64,000 nt of DNA from an uncultured delta proteobacterium. GTDB taxonomy: Bacteria > Desulfobacterota > Deferrimicrobia > Deferrimicrobiales > Deferrimicrobiaceae. How positions within the stretch are numbered: position 1 is the first letter of the stretch; each line of letters begins with the position of its first letter. The notes beneath the pieces were generated by a model, which was given only the letters and a program-made list of their open reading frames with translations, had not been told where the DNA came from and made no database searches. Below, in pieces: positions 12,697-54,798 of this stretch. The position numbers were made by a program, and so were the translations under genes. Location of the stretch: positions 136,883 through 200,882 of the forward strand of contig CAVXEY010000007.1 in the NCBI GenBank assembly GCA_963760885.1. The letters are read 5' to 3'.

Positions 12697-13674
12697 ATGG
12701 GACCGGTTCGGAACGTGGATGACCTGATGGCGCTCGGGCACGGCTACCAGCGAGCGATGATCCTGTTCGCCGCGCTGAAGCTCGGGGTGTTCCGGGGGCT
12801 TGCGGGCGGGGGATGCGACGCACCCGCGCTGGCGCGCCGGGTCGGCGCCGACCCGGGGAAGCTCTCCATCCTCCTCGACGCGCTCGCGACCCAGGGGCTG
12901 GTCGGGAAAAAGGGGAACAAATACCGGAACGCGCCGGCCGCGCGGGACCTCCTGCTCCCGGGGCCCCGTTCGATGGAGTCCATCCTCCTGCACCTCCTCG
13001 ACGGGTGGGGGGAATGGGGCCGCCTTCCCGCCACGGTACGGGCGGGGCGGACGCCTCGCGGAGGTGTGGAGGGGAACCTGCAGGAGAACTTCATTCGCGG
13101 GATGGAGGAAAACGCCCGCGAGCGGGCGGCGGCCGTGGCCCGGCAGATTCCTCTCCGCGGCGGGGACCGTCTCCTCGACCTCGGGGGCGGCCCGGGGTCG
13201 TATGCCCTCGCGTGGGCCGACGCCTGCCCGGGCGCGGAGATCACCGTCTTCGATACGCCGGCGACGCTGCGGGTCACGCGGAAGATCCTTCGGGAGAAGG
13301 GCGCGTACGGGCGGGTGCGCCTGGCGGAGGGGGATTTCCTCAAGGACCCTCTCGGCGGACCGTACGATTTCGTGTGGATCTCCCAGATCCTGCACGCCTA
13401 CTCCGAATCGGACTGCGTGAAACTGCTCCGCCGGGCGCGCTCCGCCCTGGTCCCGGGCGGGCGGGTGGCGGTCCAGGAGTTCCTGCTGGCGGAGGGGAAG
13501 ACCTCCCCGCCGGGACCGGTCTTCTTTTCCGTCCACATGGTGGCGGTGACCGAGGGCGGAAGGGCGTACACGGCCCGGGAGATCACGGCGATGATGAGGA
13601 CGGCGGGATTCCGGAAGCTCTCCGCCGATCCGCCGGACCCGCGGGGCGTCGGCATCGTGCGGGGGGGCGCGTGA
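12697..13674 (+). CDS. class I SAM-dependent O-methyltransferase (N-terminal dimerisation domain plus MTase)
   Basis: LDLGGGPGSYA SAM-binding motif. O-MTase-like layout. RBS GCAGGAGGTG. Confidence 0.75.
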   Translation: MGPVRNVDDLMALGHGYQRAMILFAALKLGVFRGLAGGGCDAPALARRVGADPGKLSILLDALATQGLVGKKGNKYRNAPAARDLLLPGPRSMESILLHLLDGWGEWGRLPATVRAGRTPRGGVEGNLQENFIRGMEENARERAAAVARQIPLRGGDRLLDLGGGPGSYALAWADACPGAEITVFDTPATLRVTRKILREKGAYGRVRLAEGDFLKDPLGGPYDFVWISQILHAYSESDCVKLLRRARSALVPGGRVAVQEFLLAEGKTSPPGPVFFSVHMVAVTEGGRAYTAREITAMMRTAGFRKLSADPPDPRGVGIVRGGA

Positions 13675-14560
13675 ACCGCCGCACGCCGCTCGGCAAAGGG
13701 GCGCTGAATCGTATCAGGGGCGCACAACAAGAATGGAACAGGAAGACTCGTCCCGATCGATTGCCGCAATGGCGATCCGCATCTTGTTTTATTTTGGCAT
13801 TTCCTCCATGGAGGGAAGGTGTGATGACAAGCGAATTGCGGATCCGGATCCCGGTTGCCGGATGCGAAAACGATGGCGGTTCGCCCCTCACCCTGCATAT
13901 CTGCGCAGGGCAGCACCCTCGGGGGAGGTTCCAGAAATAACGTATATATTTCGAATAATTTCATTAATATAGCGACTCAACCGCGTGCTCTCGACATTTT
14001 CGGATTCTCTTTGACCCTCGGAACGGGGGCGGGGAAAAACGGGTGATGAGATATTCGATGGCCTGTTGAGTTTTACAACACAAATTTTCGTTACGAATGC
14101 AATACGCATTTCCGCTGATTTCGGGGTGCAAAAATATTCCGCATCCAAAGATTTCCCGCCATCGAATCATTCGTGTGGCAATCCACCAGATAATTCATTA
14201 AATATCCGCATGTTGAACGGTGTCATGGATCCGGAATCCACCTCTGTGGCAATGAATGCGGTCGCCATGCGGCTGGAAGGGGGAATGTAGAAAAATTATA
14301 GTACTGTAGAATATTTCTATTATAGTATTCTTAAAAATATCGGTAGTAGCGGCATCATCTTCCACTTCATCCCATAAAATGATATTATTTCAAAAATAAA
14401 ATAATGTATCGGTGAAAATTATTTCGTAGTAAGCAGAATCGTCATAATTCCTTAATTTTGTCAATATCATTCAAGTCTTATATTGTAACAATAAAACATT
14501 ATTTTAATGTATTCGTATAATGGAAATAAATTATTTGTATGTCGTTTTGCTGAATTTGTA

Positions 14561-14589
14561 TTGACAGATACTGGAATTGTGCGTAGTTT
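14561..14589 (+). promoter_or_regulatory. sigma70-like promoter candidate inside the AT-rich island (TTGACA-17 nt-TAGTTT)
   Basis: Perfect -35 hexamer TTGACA, 17-nt spacer and TAGTTT -10, about 160 nt upstream of the hdrA-like gene. Confidence 0.4.
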
Positions 14590-14601
14590 GAAAATTATGA
14601 T

Positions 14602-14640
14602 GGTCAGGCCAATTCATGATGAAGGTCAGTCCAATTCATG
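14602..14640 (+). repeat. 17-nt direct repeat (GGTCAGGCCAATTCATG / GGTCAGTCCAATTCATG) with 22-nt periodicity
   Basis: Two copies with one mismatch, lying directly downstream of the candidate -10. Candidate operator or activator site. Confidence 0.5.
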
Positions 14641-14747
14641 CGGGAAAATCCCGGGAACTTCCTTCCATTACTTCGGAGCGTGACCGCGGACCACGGTATA
14701 GCGACTGTCAACCCCGATCAGAGCGGTACCGAACGAGGTAAAGCGCG

Positions 14748-16568
14748 ATGGTCAACGAATTGAGAACGGGCGTCTACATCTGCCAGGCAGGGATCGGCGG
14801 CGCCAACGACGTCGACCTGAAAAAAGTCGTCCGATACGCAGAAAGTCTCCCCAATGTCATAAAGGTTGGAATTCTGGGCGAGAATCCGAGACTCGATCCC
14901 GTTGTCCTCGCCCAGGAGATCCGGAACGACGAAATCGAGCGGATCGTCGTTGCGGGAGACTCTTCGGGGTACTTCAAGCCGGCCTTCACGTGCGCGATGG
15001 TTCAGGCGGGAGGCGATCCGGGCAACGTACTGGTTGCATCGTTCCTCGGAAACGGCGCCTCCGGACTGAACTCGACCGAACGTGCCAAGGGCGTAGTGGC
15101 CTGCTCCGTCTACGGCGTTCCCTTCGGACTGGCGGCGGTTCCGCAGTACGCGGCGGTTCACCCCGATACGCTCGTGATCGGCGGGGGCGTTGGCGGCATT
15201 CAGGCCGCCCTGGAAATCGCCGATGCCGGGAAGAAGGTCTTCCTCGTCGAGAAAAGCGGCACCATCGGCGGCCACATGGCGATGTTCGACAAGACCTTCC
15301 CGACCCTCGACTGCGCCGCCTGCATCCTGACCCCCAAGATGGTCGCTGTCGGTCAGCACAAGATGATCGACCTGATGACGTACTCCGAGGTCCAGGAGGT
15401 GACCGGATCGCCGGGGGCCTACAAGGTCAAGGTCCGAAGGTTCGCACGCCGCGTCGACGAAATCGCCTGCGTGGCCTGCAACGCCTGCTCCGAGGTCTGC
15501 CCGACCAGCGTTCCGAGCGAATTCGACGCCGGGATCAGCATGAGAAAGGCGATCTACGTTCCCTTCCCCCAGGCGGTGCCCAACTCTTTCCTGGTCGACG
15601 GCGATTCATGCCTCTACGTGCAGAGCGGCGGAAAGAAGTGCGGGGCGTGCGTCAAGAAGTGCGCGAAGGAAGCCATCCACCTCGACGACGAGGACCAGAT
15701 CGTCGAACTGACGGTCGGCAACATCGTCGTCGCTACCGGCTACGCCCCCTTCGACGCCAGGAGGATCGAGCGATACGGGTACGGCGTTTATCCCAACGTC
15801 CTCACGTCCCTCGAATTCGAGCGCCTGACGAACGCATCGGGCCCGACCGGCGGGAACATCGTGATGAAGGCCCTGCGGCACAACAAGCGCAAGAAGGTCG
15901 ACGAGTGGGTTTTCTCTACCGAGAATCCCAAACCGAAAAGCGTGGCGATCATCCACTGCATCGGCTCGCGCGACGAGAATTACAACTCGTACTGCTCGCG
16001 GGTCTGCTGCATGTACTCGCTGAAGTTCGCCCATCTGGTCCGGGAAAAGCTGCCCGACGCCGCCTGCTACGAGTTCTACATCGACATGCGCGCGTACGGG
16101 AAGAACTACGAGGAGTTCTTCCAGCGGATCGGGGAGGAAGGAGTCTTCCTTGTACGCGGCCGCACGGGCAAGGTCGTCGAGCAGAGCGGAAAGATGAGTA
16201 TCAAGGGCGAGGACATCGTTGGAGACAAGGTGCTCGAGTTCCAGGTCGACATGGTGATCCTCTCCGTAGGTTTGGAGGCGTCGGCCGATGCGGAGCGCCT
16301 CTCGGGACTTCTCGGAATCGCGCGCGACAAGGACGGCTGGTTCGCGGAACGGGACTACAACGCCGATCCGACCGGCACGGAACGCGGGGGAATCTTCGTC
16401 GCCGGCGTTTGTCAGGGGCCGAAGGACATCCCCGACACCGTATCACAGGCCTCGGCGGCGGCGGCCCGGGTCCTCAAGAGCATCCTCAGCGGGCGAATTC
16501 AGGAGAGTCGGTCCGGGTTGACGCTTGCCGATATCGAATCGCGCATCCGTCGTCAGGCGCACGCATAA
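14748..16568 (+). CDS. hdrA: HdrA-like FAD/FeS flavoprotein (heterodisulfide reductase subunit A family) with a cysteine-poor N-terminal domain
   Basis: FAD fold LVIGGGVGGIQAALEIADAGKKVFLVEKSG. HdrA signature CSRVCC. Inserted ferredoxin CVACNACSEVCP. The N-domain reads YICQAGIGG where canonical HdrA has CxCG. Confidence 0.85.
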   Translation: MVNELRTGVYICQAGIGGANDVDLKKVVRYAESLPNVIKVGILGENPRLDPVVLAQEIRNDEIERIVVAGDSSGYFKPAFTCAMVQAGGDPGNVLVASFLGNGASGLNSTERAKGVVACSVYGVPFGLAAVPQYAAVHPDTLVIGGGVGGIQAALEIADAGKKVFLVEKSGTIGGHMAMFDKTFPTLDCAACILTPKMVAVGQHKMIDLMTYSEVQEVTGSPGAYKVKVRRFARRVDEIACVACNACSEVCPTSVPSEFDAGISMRKAIYVPFPQAVPNSFLVDGDSCLYVQSGGKKCGACVKKCAKEAIHLDDEDQIVELTVGNIVVATGYAPFDARRIERYGYGVYPNVLTSLEFERLTNASGPTGGNIVMKALRHNKRKKVDEWVFSTENPKPKSVAIIHCIGSRDENYNSYCSRVCCMYSLKFAHLVREKLPDAACYEFYIDMRAYGKNYEEFFQRIGEEGVFLVRGRTGKVVEQSGKMSIKGEDIVGDKVLEFQVDMVILSVGLEASADAERLSGLLGIARDKDGWFAERDYNADPTGTERGGIFVAGVCQGPKDIPDTVSQASAAAARVLKSILSGRIQESRSGLTLADIESRIRRQAHA

Positions 16569-24377: not shown

Positions 24378-24473
24378 GGAAGCGGATGGGGCGCTGGTGG
24401 CCCCCCCGGACTTCAAATCCGGTCGGGAGGCGGAAACGTCTCCGGTGGGTTCGATTCCCTCACGCTTCCGCCA
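24378..24473 (+). tRNA. selC: tRNA-Sec-like (anticodon UCA, long variable arm, ~96 nt)
   Basis: GGAAGCGG...CCGGACTTCAAATCCGG...(long extra arm)...GGGTTCGATTCCC...CGCTTCCGCCA. The anticodon loop CTTCAAA gives a TCA anticodon. The acceptor stem is 7 bp plus a G.A pair, which is not ideal for a bacterial Sec tRNA. Confidence 0.7.
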
Positions 24474-51379: not shown

Positions 51380-52840
51380 ATGAAATTTCGGGGCATTCCC
51401 CTGCGTGATCGGGGGCTGCAGTTCAAGCTCACGCTGGTCATGCTGATCCTCTTCGCCTGCTCCCTCGGGTCGGTGTACATCCCGTACATGTTCGGGCGGA
51501 ACGCGCTGAAGAGGGACCTCGAGAACAGCTTCCTCGAACTTTCCAACGCGATCAGCGTCAGCGTCGACCAGTTGACGACGCCGGGGGTCTCCGAGGAGGA
51601 CCGCCTGTACCATTACGTGGAATCGCTGAAGAAAACGGGGATCCGCGAGGTGTCGATCGTCGGCGAGGACATGGGCGTGATCGACAGCACCAACCTCAAG
51701 GCGATCGGCCGGCCGGCGAAGATCAGGCTGCCGCCCAAGAAACTGGTGATCAACGCGACGTTCGGGGATGATGCGGGGGAGAAGCTCCAGCCCCGGGACC
51801 TCGTGGTGCCGGTCAAGGTGGTGGGGGACACCCTCGGTTACATCCACATGCGATTGAAGATCGACGACTTCACCGAGCCGATCCGTCGGAACCTCTACCT
51901 GCGCCTCTTCAGCACCCTCCTCATCTTCTCGGGCGGGCTCGTCCTCGCGGTCATCATCTCCGCCCACTACGTATCCCCCGTGGTTCGGCTGGCGCACGCC
52001 GCCGAGACCGTGGCCGCCGGGGATCTTTCTCAGGAGCTTCCCGTCGAGGGGAACGACGAGGTGGGACGGCTCACCCGTTCCTTCAACGAGATGATCGTCC
52101 GGCTCCGGCAGAACCGGTCGCTCGAGGAGGCGGTACGGGAGAACCAGTACCTGACGCATCTCGGGAAGCTCTCGTCGGGAATGGCCCACGAGATCCGCAA
52201 CCCGCTCAACTTCATCGGGCTCGCGGTGGACCACCTCGACGCGATGACGGAGGGGAAAGGGTTCGAGGGGGAAGCGGAGAAATGCCAGGTGATCGGCCGG
52301 ATCAAGGAGGAGATCGGGCGCCTGAACGAGCTGGTGACCAACTTCATCCTCTACGGGCGTCCGCCCGAGCTGCAGCGCGCGGCCGTCCGGGTCCCCGAGC
52401 TCGCGGTCGGAGTGCTCCAGATGGCGGAGGAGCGTCTTCGCGCGCAATCGATCTCCTGCCGCACGGAGCTCGGGGACACCCGTGAGATCAACGCCGATCC
52501 CGACATGCTGCGGAGGGCGCTGGTGAACCTGGTGGGGAACGCCATCGACGCGATGCCCAACGGCGGAACCCTGTCCGTTTCCGCGGGACCCCGGCCCGAC
52601 GGGAGATACTCCGTCGTCGTGGAGGATACGGGTGTCGGAATCCCGGCGAAAGAACGGGAAAGGATCTTCGAGCCGTACTTCACCACCAAGGTGTCCGGGC
52701 TGGGGCTCGGGTTGGTCCTCACGAAGAAGATCGTCGACGCCCACGGGGGGGAGATCTTCGTGGATTCCGCCCAGGGGAAGGGGACGCGGATCGAGATTGC
52801 GCTTCCGGCGGGGTCCCTCGCGGGGGGGGCGCCCGGATGA
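51380..52840 (+). CDS. sensor histidine kinase (2 TM - HAMP - HisKA - HATPase), NtrB/ZraS-like
   Basis: HAMP (AAGDLSQELPVEGNDEVGRLTRSFNEM). H-box LSSGMAHEIRNPLN. N/G boxes NLVGNAIDAM and GLGLGLV. Confidence 0.8.
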   Translation: MKFRGIPLRDRGLQFKLTLVMLILFACSLGSVYIPYMFGRNALKRDLENSFLELSNAISVSVDQLTTPGVSEEDRLYHYVESLKKTGIREVSIVGEDMGVIDSTNLKAIGRPAKIRLPPKKLVINATFGDDAGEKLQPRDLVVPVKVVGDTLGYIHMRLKIDDFTEPIRRNLYLRLFSTLLIFSGGLVLAVIISAHYVSPVVRLAHAAETVAAGDLSQELPVEGNDEVGRLTRSFNEMIVRLRQNRSLEEAVRENQYLTHLGKLSSGMAHEIRNPLNFIGLAVDHLDAMTEGKGFEGEAEKCQVIGRIKEEIGRLNELVTNFILYGRPPELQRAAVRVPELAVGVLQMAEERLRAQSISCRTELGDTREINADPDMLRRALVNLVGNAIDAMPNGGTLSVSAGPRPDGRYSVVVEDTGVGIPAKERERIFEPYFTTKVSGLGLGLVLTKKIVDAHGGEIFVDSAQGKGTRIEIALPAGSLAGGAPG

Positions 52841-54195
52841 AGGGGACCGTCCTCGTCGTAGACGACGAGCGGAACCAGCGGGAGATCCTCGGCGCGATTC
52901 TCAAAAGTGAAGGGTACTCCCCGGTGCTGGCCTCCGGGGGCGTGGAGGCGCTGCGGCTCCTCGAGCGGGAGGCTGTCGACCTCGTGATCACCGATCTCGT
53001 CATGCCGGGGATGACGGGGGAGGAGCTGATCGACGCGATCCTCGCCCGCAACCCGGGGATGCCCATCCTGCTCAGCAGCGCCTACGGCACGATCCAGACG
53101 GCGGTCGACGCGATCAAGAAGGGGGCGTACTACTTCTTCGAAAAGCCGGTCGACCGGGCCCGCCTGCTGATCATCATCGAACGGGCCATCGAGAACCTGC
53201 ACCTGCGCGAGTCCCATCGGGTGCTGTCGGAGAAGCTCTTCCCCGGCGCCGTTCCGATCCTCGGCGAGCACGCGGCGATCCGCGAGATCAAGCGGATCCT
53301 GCCGCGCGTCGCGAGGAGCGAGAGCACCATCCTCCTCACCGGCGAAAGCGGCACGGGGAAGGAGGTGATCGCCCGCAGCGTCCATTCCATGAGCGGCCGC
53401 AGCGCCGCCCCGTTCCTCGCGGTCAACTGCGCCTCTCTCCCGGACACCCTGTTCGAGAGCGAGCTGTTCGGCCACGAGCGCGGGGCGTTCACCGGCGCGG
53501 TGCGCCGGGAGATCGGTCTCTTCGAGGCCGCGGGAGGGGGTACGATCTTCCTCGACGAGATCGCGGAGATCAAGCTGGAGACCCAGGCAAAGCTGCTGCG
53601 CACCTTGCAGGAAAAGGAGATCCGCCGGATCGGCGGGAAGGAGAACATCCCCGTCGATGCCCGGATCGTCGCCGCGACGAACCGGGATCTCGACGACGCC
53701 GTGCGGGAAGGAAAGTTCCGGGCGGATCTCTTCTACCGGTTGAACATCGTGAAGCTCACCCTCCCGCCGCTGCGGGACCGGATCTCCGACATTCCCCTCC
53801 TCGCGGAGCACTTCCTGGAGAAGCACGGGGAGAAGGGCGTCCCCCCGGTGGACGAGATCACGAAGGAGGCGATGCGGCTCCTGATGCGATACCCGTGGCC
53901 CGGGAACATCCGCGAACTTTCCTCCGTCGTCGAGCGTGCGGTCGTCCTCGCGGAAGGGGGGAAGATCGGGCCCGGCGAACTGCCTCTGGAACTGCGGGAG
54001 GGGGCGGATGCCGTCCCCGCGAAGTCGTTCGACCTTCCTCCCCAGGGGGTGGAGTTCGAGAAGGTCGAGGAGCATCTGCTCCGGCAGGCGTTGGCGCGTT
54101 CCGGGGGCGTTCACACCCGGGGTGCCGAGCTGCTCCGGATGAGTTACAAGGCGTACATCTACCGCCTGAAGAAGTTCGGGATTCTTCCTCCCTGA
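52837..54195 (+). CDS. sigma54-dependent response regulator (NtrC family: REC - AAA+ - HTH)
   Basis: REC domain Asp-containing LVITDLVMPGM. AAA+ GESGTGKE. GAFTGA motif (ESELFGHERGAFTGA). C-terminal Fis-type HTH. Confidence 0.85.
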   Translation: MKGTVLVVDDERNQREILGAILKSEGYSPVLASGGVEALRLLEREAVDLVITDLVMPGMTGEELIDAILARNPGMPILLSSAYGTIQTAVDAIKKGAYYFFEKPVDRARLLIIIERAIENLHLRESHRVLSEKLFPGAVPILGEHAAIREIKRILPRVARSESTILLTGESGTGKEVIARSVHSMSGRSAAPFLAVNCASLPDTLFESELFGHERGAFTGAVRREIGLFEAAGGGTIFLDEIAEIKLETQAKLLRTLQEKEIRRIGGKENIPVDARIVAATNRDLDDAVREGKFRADLFYRLNIVKLTLPPLRDRISDIPLLAEHFLEKHGEKGVPPVDEITKEAMRLLMRYPWPGNIRELSSVVERAVVLAEGGKIGPGELPLELREGADAVPAKSFDLPPQGVEFEKVEEHLLRQALARSGGVHTRGAELLRMSYKAYIYRLKKFGILPP

Positions 54196-54309
54196 TCGAT
54201 TCCCCAAATGGGGAATGCGTGCCTCCATTGGGGAGACAGGAGAGATAATCCTCTCGGGTGTTAATTTGCAACTTCAATGATTCCGAAGGGTTGTATCTTT
54301 CGGAGCGGT

Positions 54310-54326
54310 TGGCACCGTCCTTGAAT
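54310..54326 (+). promoter_or_regulatory. sigma54 (-24/-12) promoter candidate TGGCACcgtccTTGAA
   Basis: TGGCAC at -24, then 5 nt, then TTGA at -12 (the GC of consensus TTGC is GA here). Located 47 nt upstream of the Ala/Lys-rich ORF and downstream of the NtrC-family regulator. Confidence 0.5.
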
Positions 54327-54372
54327 AACCTATTCCCAAACACCCAAATACTCCCTTTGAGAGGGGACAGAA

Positions 54373-54798
54373 ATGAAGAGAATTTTTGCGGTAGTGATGG
54401 CAGTTGCGTTTGTGTTCTCGGTCGCGGGCTTCGCGGTCGCGGCGGAGAAGGCGGCGCCTGCGGCGGAGAAGTCGGCCACGGCGGCGGAGAAGGCTCCCGC
54501 GGCGAAGAAGGCTCCCGTGGCGAAGAAGGCGAAGTCCCACCAGATCACCGGCACGGTCGAGGCGGTCGACGCGGCGGCCGGCACCTTTACGGTGAAGGGC
54601 AAGAAGGGGAACGTGGACCTGAAGGCGGGCGACAAGGTCAAGCTGGGCGACGTCAAGGTCGGCGACAAGGTCGTCGTCAAGTATGCCGAAGGCACCGCTT
54701 CGTCCCTGAAGGCCGTGAAGGCTCACAAGGCGGCCAAGGCTGCGAAGAAGTCGGCCGTGAAGGCGGAGAAAGCGGCGGATGCGGCGGAGAAGAAGTAA
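54373..54798 (+). CDS. secreted Ala/Lys-rich small protein (signal peptide, AAEK-type repeats, central beta-rich domain)
   Basis: Signal peptide MKRIFAVVMAVAFVFSVAGFAVA. Repeats AAEKAAPAAEKSATAAEKAPAAKKAPVAKKAK. Core TGTVEAVDAAAGTFTVKGKKGNVDLKAGDKVKLGDVKVGDKVVVKY. RBS GAGAGGGGA. Confidence 0.65.
   Translation: MKRIFAVVMAVAFVFSVAGFAVAAEKAAPAAEKSATAAEKAPAAKKAPVAKKAKSHQITGTVEAVDAAAGTFTVKGKKGNVDLKAGDKVKLGDVKVGDKVVVKYAEGTASSLKAVKAHKAAKAAKKSAVKAEKAADAAEKK

Follow-up and report, generated by a model that had tools for sequence, protein, structure and literature searches.

Why does a GC-rich bacterial genome carry an abruptly AT-rich, non-coding stretch immediately in front of a hydrogenase and heterodisulfide reductase operon? 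The question is raised by a locus in a 64,000-nt stretch of contig CAVXEY010000007.1 (hereafter the window, meaning this whole stretch) from an uncultured delta proteobacterium of the Deferrimicrobiaceae. Between the stop codon of an O-methyltransferase gene (position 13674) and the ATG of an hdrA-like gene (14748) lies a non-coding gap of 1073 nt whose composition turns abruptly AT-rich. The original prediction, made from the sequence alone, had proposed that this island might be a foreign-DNA remnant, a target of a xenogeneic silencer, a curved regulatory region or an unannotated non-coding RNA (ncRNA). Comparison with related loci suggests another answer: the island is probably the promoter and regulatory region of the downstream operon (hdrA, a qmoC-like gene, a second hdrA-like gene and mvhDGA), and lineages seem to have exchanged it separately from the genes that it controls.

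An AT-rich block shared by relatives

The sequence and its GC profile bear out an abrupt AT-rich, non-coding stretch between the O-methyltransferase gene and hdrA, although several of the values first attached to it need correction. The mean GC content of the window is 65.0% (standard deviation 5.0% for 300-nt windows) and not the ~69% that had been given for the genome, and positions 13900–14700, described as ~30% GC, have 39.5%. The gap consists of three parts of 59% (13675–13930), 45% (13930–14280) and 26% GC (14280–14600). Only the last one, a core of 320 nt listed without strand, is extreme: it holds the lowest-GC 300-nt window of the 64 kb (25.7%), and on a crude gene map every other uncalled segment of the window has at least 48.6% GC. 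Both A/T runs that had been quoted from the island were found in the sequence.

Relatives were fetched through their HdrA protein, which provided 170 loci. One HdrA clade (A) comprises the window, L001 and L170 (99–100% identical) plus L002 and L165 at 89%; the other (B) comprises L004, L162, L168 and L169, which are 97–99% identical among themselves and 76–78% identical to the window, and also L166, L167, L164, L082 and L083 at about 87–94%. In most of these loci, a long region upstream of hdrA could be aligned with that of the window and had a nearly equal GC profile, with values per 100 nt from −1000 to −1 of roughly 0.5, 0.6, 0.47, 0.4, 0.45, 0.37, 0.3, 0.2, 0.38 and 0.59. The homologous AT-rich region was present upstream of hdrA in L001, L002, L004, L162, L168, L169 and L170, and the profile of the core was repeated there in L001, L162, L168, L169, L170 and L004. 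Since a homologous AT-rich block occupies the same place in relatives, the island is no insertion confined to this genome. Two clade B loci, L164 and L082, have no such block and possess other upstream regions, that of L164 resembling those of L003 and L005. A reservation raised at the outset, an assembly chimera, is unlikely, given that assemblies made independently from different samples show the same arrangement.

Several short metagenome contigs end in or next to the block (L004, which starts inside it, L163, which starts at the hdrA ATG, and L083, L165, L166 and L167). This suggests that its composition or strain-level polymorphism breaks assemblies, and it restricts the sample of full-length alleles.

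Block alleles discordant with the adjacent genes

The block of the window, which we call the alpha allele (13753–14692, without strand; ~45 nt of its left end were lost with a deletion described below), is 92–93% identical to the blocks of L162, L168 and L169, whose HdrA proteins are only 76–77% identical to that of the window. By contrast, it is only 69% identical to the block of L170, whose HdrA is 99% identical. Sliding identity profiles in 200-nt bins, with the upstream region taken from −1000 to −1, exhibited the same discordance. Within clades, coding bins were 93–100% identical for both window versus L170 and L168 versus L004, whereas upstream bins dropped to 61–79% and 56–67%, respectively; between clades, for the window versus L168, L162 or L169, coding bins were 55–89% identical and upstream bins 90–96%, or 91–96% for L168 alone. 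Divergence at 4-fold degenerate sites of three operon genes was 2.5% for the window and L001, 7.3% for the window and L170 and 34% for the window and L168, compared with block divergences of 6.6–6.8%, 31% and 6.5–6.7%, respectively. Because block and genes disagree in this way, an exchange of the control region between lineages appears to have taken place. Relatives carry the island natively at this locus, but the particular allele found here is shared horizontally with a lineage whose adjacent genes are ~20% divergent.

Informative-site scans placed the right-hand switch at about −55 from the ATG (window ~14693), within the conserved leader. In L162, L168 and L169, sites are window-like upstream of ~−55 and L004-like downstream, at the same position in all three, and a reciprocal switch at ~−55 was found for the window and L001 against L168 and L170. 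At its other extremity, the block begins with a G-rich motif, GGGGTGGGGCAAGGGGAAGGAG, followed by GTTCCGATCG...GGCGATCCGCATCTTGTTTTATTTTGG, common to L001, L162, L168 and L169 and present in a diverged form in L170.

Five window-type (alpha) copies are available from different samples. Each has private substitutions (9–41 singletons), and the tree of the five copies is star-like, with only 8 sites separating the two host clades and part of these sites probably lying beyond the breakpoint. Indels are rare (8 columns of 1002), the transition:transversion ratio is similar to that of the flanking genes and substitutions are spread evenly, with 14.5–19.7% of sites variable for each of A, C, G and T. 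The private substitutions, the rarity of indels and the unbiased spectrum argue against sequencing noise and against targeted mutagenesis of the kind mediated by diversity-generating retroelements; Nanopore-type errors and such mutagenesis were both rejected as sources of the block variability. Between the window and L001, differences within the block reach up to 29 per 250 nt within 14250–14549, and private changes number 37 in L001 and 9 in the window.

Predicted promoter, boxes and leader

Among the options of the original prediction, the regulatory region is the one that held, as a conserved sigma-70-type promoter, upstream blocks and a leader all lie within it. The promoter (14561–14589, plus strand) is composed of a perfect −35 hexamer, TTGACA (14561–14566), a 17-nt spacer and the −10 element TAGTTT (14584–14589). 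The sequence TTGACAG at the −35 is invariant in all block-carrying relatives as well as in L003 and L005, and the −10 position is conserved in the same loci as TAnnnT (TAGTTT, TACTTT, TAATTT or TATAAT) at the same spacing, L002, L003 and L005 having TATAAT. The 50-nt bin containing the promoter had 3 variable sites among the five alpha alleles, versus 5–19 in the other 50-nt bins. Transcription is predicted to start most likely near 14596–14597, giving a leader of ~150 nt up to the ATG.

Just after the −10 element lies a 22-nt tandem duplication (14594–14637, plus strand; 19/22 positions matching), which corresponds to the direct repeat reported earlier; the repeat is real, but longer than the 17 nt first described. 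It contains two GGTCAGNCCAATT boxes (14602–14614 and 14624–14636). The box is single in L004, L165 and L166 and double in the other aligned alleles, with a repeat period of 22 nt in the window type, 16 nt in L170 and 23 nt in L083. These differences in copy number and period indicate several independent duplications of a conserved box, which we take to be an operator or an RNA-level site.

The end of the leader (14693–14753, plus strand) is deeply conserved. It contains GTCAACCCCGATCAGAGCGG, the Shine-Dalgarno sequence GAGG (14735–14738) and the ATG at 14748, and conservation of the final ~60 nt ahead of the ATG extends to 15 relatives, with HdrA identities down to ~75%, even to loci with an unrelated upstream region (L164, L082, L003 and L005). 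The conserved pattern is GTCAACCC.GATCAGAGCG...ACGAGGTA.AGCGC.ATGG, also written YAACC.C.GATCA.GAGC...ACGAGGTARAGCGC.ATGG. GATCA (14716–14720) may pair with UGGUC (14749–14753) in a 5+2 bp helix enclosing the ribosome-binding site and start codon, for which we found one compensatory change only.

Further upstream, a block alignment of 10 sequences (A5) revealed a series of short conserved blocks, listed here without strand. The most distal one, in the 45% GC part, is the palindrome TGTTGAGTTTTACAACA (14064–14080), whose form GTTGA-N5-(T/A)CAAC is common to the alpha, gamma (L004) and delta (L002) alleles, which show one compensatory change in its outer positions; it is a candidate binding site for a dimeric regulator. 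The near-palindromic block GGATCCGGAATCC, with its flanking bases (14227–14243), is present in all full-length alleles of the alignment and is a putative regulatory site as well. The block TGTAGAATATTTCTATTATAGTATTC (14305–14330) is conserved across the alpha, beta and gamma alleles and that of L166, is unique within the window and belongs to the least variable 50-nt bins of the alpha alleles; a related TGTAGAA copy occurs at 14286–14297. In the 10-sequence alignment, the pattern TGTAGAATATTT.TATT.TAGTATTC was invariant or nearly so. Another conserved block, AAT(A/C)AAATAATGT (14395–14407), resembles in most alleles, with one mismatch, what we take to be the consensus of an IHF site (WATCAANNNNTTR). 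Finally, the ATAAAACATTATT box (14491–14503) starts ~70 nt upstream of the −35; its ATAAAAC is invariant in 10/10 aligned sequences, and it occurs once in the window, where 0 occurrences are expected by chance. A regulon search detected no further occurrences of the conserved boxes, GGTCAGNCCAATT included, in the 64 kb. By-eye inspection of the conserved blocks for a sigma-54 promoter or for Rex, CRP or FNR-type sites found only spacings that did not fit.

A possible mechanism

These elements can be assembled into a putative mechanism. Transcription of the operon would start near 14597 from the TTGACA-17 nt-TAGTTT promoter, with ~300 nt of DNA of 20–30% GC upstream whose short blocks could be sites for regulators or nucleoid proteins and which may also provide UP-like DNA aiding the polymerase. 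The palindromic blocks of the 45% GC part might likewise be bound by a regulator or a nucleoid protein. The one or two GGTCAGNCCAATT boxes, at about +5 to +40, would serve as operator or RNA-level site, and the ~150-nt leader would end in the conserved ribosome-binding region. The ~1 kb block as a whole behaves as an exchangeable allele, existing in ~30% divergent versions in close strains and in 93% identical versions beside genes that are ~20% different in DNA, and changes of allele might affect the expression of the operon. The simplest route of exchange would be homologous recombination, with one crossover in the conserved leader ~55 nt before the ATG, an arm supported by the breakpoint, and the other in the conserved left end of the block, which is a conjecture.

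A bolder version can also be envisaged, in which the block would be a self-contained, non-coding regulatory cassette circulating among co-occurring anaerobes. The G-rich left end and the hdrA leader would be its recombination arms, ~30% divergent allele families (alpha, beta, gamma and others) would be swapped repeatedly, re-tuning the same hydrogen/heterodisulfide-reductase operon, and AT content and box copy number would be the functional payload. We hold this version to be rather unlikely.

Alternative explanations

A foreign AT-rich insertion, that is, a mobile-element or prophage remnant silenced by a nucleoid-associated xenogeneic silencer, would agree with the extreme composition contrast, with the movement of block alleles between lineages and with the rearranged neighbourhood (the usp deletion and the ~330 and ~370 extra bases of L169 and L170, described below). 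However, in every block-carrying relative the homologous block lies directly upstream of hdrA, it contains the conserved promoter of the operon, and the genes downstream of it have typical GC. Inverted repeats are weak and scattered only; no transposase or convincing terminal inverted repeats, no second copy in the window or the 170 fetched loci and no match to plasmid and phage collections were found, and two viral-contig pattern scans yielded one chance match, inside a phage gene. We consider such an origin improbable: of the foreign-DNA remnant first proposed, the private insertion does not stand, but the movement of particular alleles between lineages does. The converse possibility, namely no horizontal exchange at all, with the 93% identity due either to a block under very strong purifying selection or to artefacts of assembly or consensus, draws on the long contigs coming seemingly from one project and on the short contigs that terminate within or beside the block (L004, L163, L083, L165, L166 and L167), as expected from a region that is hard to assemble. 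Yet the block diverges faster within lineages than 4-fold sites do (6.8% versus 2.5%), so that it is not under unusually strong constraint, and in L170 and L004 alleles ~30% divergent stand next to genes that are nearly identical. In addition, independent assemblies of five samples each recovered an alpha block with private substitutions of its own and few indels, and a chimera would need two switch points per contig, at the same place, in three contigs. The absence of exchange is thus very unlikely.

Could the conservation instead reflect RNA structure, the island being an unannotated ncRNA or a long structured leader or riboswitch? Sequence blocks are indeed kept between alleles that are 30–40% different, the last ~60 nt of the leader are kept even in relatives without the block, and the possible helix at the ribosome-binding site and start codon shows its one compensatory change. 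Nevertheless, no Rfam family was found in the gap at the gathering score in a search of the whole window, the search of 13600–14800 at E≤10 retrieved only two chance small nucleolar RNA matches (E 2–6), and no tRNA or tmRNA was found in the gap. The fold energy of the leader equalled that of shuffled sequences (z = −0.09), and RNAalifold applied to 8–15 sequences (leader and 45% GC distal part) gave covariation terms of +0.8, −0.06 and +0.83, close to zero or unfavourable, with divergent alleles mostly breaking the predicted pairs. The 1-nt indels and spacing changes between blocks are better suited to protein-binding sites. Such a structured RNA, or the ncRNA that had been suggested initially, therefore appears highly improbable. 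Hidden small protein-coding genes or a regulatory upstream open reading frame (ORF) are the most doubtful of these alternatives, with hardly any likelihood in our view. The gap has several ORFs of 30–86 aa, a 41-aa ORF ends 7 nt before the hdrA ATG, and the gene caller put a 59-aa gene in the L168 block. Against this, none of the 9 short ORFs of the gap had a Pfam match at E≤10, and six-frame blastp between divergent alleles gave short matches in every frame with no coding-type conservation, in agreement with the earlier statement that the gap contains only short ORFs without coding signal. Frames differ between alleles (the candidate upstream ORFs of the window are in different frames in L004), and 1-nt indels occur both between and inside the conserved blocks of divergent alleles. 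As read from the sequences, the 38-aa ORF at 13825–13940 shows nonsynonymous changes and a stop loss in L001, a strain 98% identical to the window.

A replication origin was also considered and rejected: no TTATCCACA DnaA box with at most one mismatch was detected in the island, and the cumulative GC skew rises on both sides.

Several observations weigh against an exchanged promoter and regulatory region, which remains the reading that we favour. The promoter had been presented as textbook; although it is present, with a perfect −35 and a position conserved in block carriers, that term is overstated because the −10 matches TATAAT at 3/6 positions only, keeping T1, A2 and T6, and the promoter is absent from the list produced by a consensus promoter scan. 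The within-lineage divergence of the block, ~2.5 times faster than that of 4-fold sites, is attributed here to relaxed constraint, although it could have another cause. Only the right-hand switch could be placed; on the left, the genes differ among lineages and the window lost the left end of the block. The long contigs are metagenome assemblies, apparently from one sequencing project, and the linkage across the junctions rests on these assemblies. Finally, a role of the AT-rich DNA in curvature or as UP-like DNA is a conjecture, and A-tract phasing (10–11.5 bp) is not robust: the fraction of shuffles reaching the observed power was 0.09 for the window, 0.016 for L168 and 0.14–0.85 for seven other alleles. 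The curved-DNA part of the original prediction gained no firm support, phasing exceeding that of shuffles at p<0.05 in 1/9 alleles.

Genomic context

To the left of the island, cysS is followed by the O-methyltransferase gene (12697–13674, plus strand), which has the Pfam domains Methyltransf_2 and Dimerisation and whose start was taken from a 325-aa gene call in L001. On the other side, the hdrA-like gene (14748–16568, plus strand), identified by Pfam matches, gene calls and the source name 'heterodisulfide reductase subunit A', is the first of the operon. It is followed by the qmoC-like gene, the second hdrA-like gene, mvhD (FlpD), mvhG, mvhA and then a maturation protease. Pfam domains and gene calls (FlpD, Oxidored_q6, NiFeSe_Hases) thus confirmed the hdr-qmoC-mvh operon announced downstream of the island.

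The gap itself has been reshaped by a deletion. Compared with the window, the 98% identical contig L001 (347 kb) is longer by 724 bases (L001 4280–5003) at window position 13752/13753, and these bases carry a gene for a 249-aa universal stress protein (Usp) on the minus strand. In the window, only a remnant of the usp 3′ end survives (13714–13752, minus strand; the last ~12 codons), immediately before the deletion junction 13752/13753, and ~45 nt at the left of the regulatory block were lost in the same deletion. The 1073-nt gap is therefore in part a deletion scar, and the loss of usp inflates its apparent size; where usp is intact, the AT-rich block forms a divergent intergenic region of ~1 kb.

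The left neighbour varies among loci, being the methyltransferase or usp in the window and L001, TerC in L170 and L002, and a cytidylate-kinase-like gene in L162, L168 and L169. Between the left gene and the block, GC-typical, non-coding extra DNA amounts to ~330 nt in L169 (~1536–1950) and ~370 nt in L170 (~1583–1950). With such variation in neighbours and extra DNA, the left junction looks like a rearrangement hotspot.

Two other features of the window lie farther away. A selenocysteine tRNA gene (24378–24473; Rfam 74 bits, ARAGORN anticodon tca) is located ~1.5 kb past the end of the hydrogenase operon. The second-lowest GC stretch of the window (54196–54372, 48.6%) contains TTGGCACCGTCCTTGAA, which resembles a sigma-54 −24/−12 promoter, and sits between an ORF at 52837–54195, guessed by eye to encode a response regulator, and an ORF at 54373–54798, which is small and Ala/Lys-rich and has a signal-like N-terminus.

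Comparison with known systems and significance

The exchange pattern fits a switched intergenic region, or horizontal regulatory switching, an already known phenomenon seen here across lineages. Thorpe et al. (2018; PMC5890482), citing Oren et al. (2014, PNAS), describe such regions and how they are linked to expression differences. Like the island, switched regions occur in close relatives as highly divergent alleles that occupy one and the same site upstream of an orthologous gene, with an allele distribution discordant with the flanking genes and a switch confined to non-coding DNA. At the locus studied here, at least two intergenic alleles with <90% identity coexist (window and L170; L168 and L004), and the intergenic history is discordant with that of the flanking genes (window versus L162, L168 and L169). 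In the terms of Piggy, the island behaves as an 'upstream' case and not as a 'gene-pair' case, which implies conservation of both flanking genes, as its left neighbours differ. The switched regions of those studies were described within cultured species (E. coli, S. aureus), whereas the island involves uncultured lineages with ~77% identical HdrA; moreover, its block is ~1 kb long, is extremely AT-rich in a 65% GC setting and has a left gene that is not conserved.

The island also resembles sigma-70 promoters with UP-element-like DNA. It has hexamers within the 16–18 nt spacer range that are conserved in orthologous regions (a perfect −35, a spacer of 16–17 nt and a TAnnnT −10) and short conserved blocks further upstream. 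T-tracts at ~−50 and AATTT at ~−42 occur in all alleles, the match to the UP consensus being judged by eye only. However, a UP element spans ~20 nt, compared with the ~300-nt AT-rich tract of the island. With the islands bound by xenogeneic silencers (H-NS, MvaT, Lsr2, Rok) it shares a very large AT excess (26% versus 65% GC) and a history of horizontal exchange, but here the AT-rich DNA is the promoter region of GC-typical housekeeping genes of energy metabolism and not an acquired gene cluster.

Many short-read assemblies are broken at this region, and comparisons of metagenome-assembled genomes centred on genes would miss this type of variation entirely. If our interpretation is correct, an operon central to energy conservation, through Hdr/Mvh-type electron bifurcation and hydrogen cycling, would have its expression shaped in part by the exchange of its control region and not only by the genes themselves, in uncultured sulfate-reducer-like or syntrophic bacteria and across lineages more than 20% apart in protein sequence. 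Regulatory switching, known from a few cultured pathogens, would then reach environmental anaerobes and a larger phylogenetic distance.

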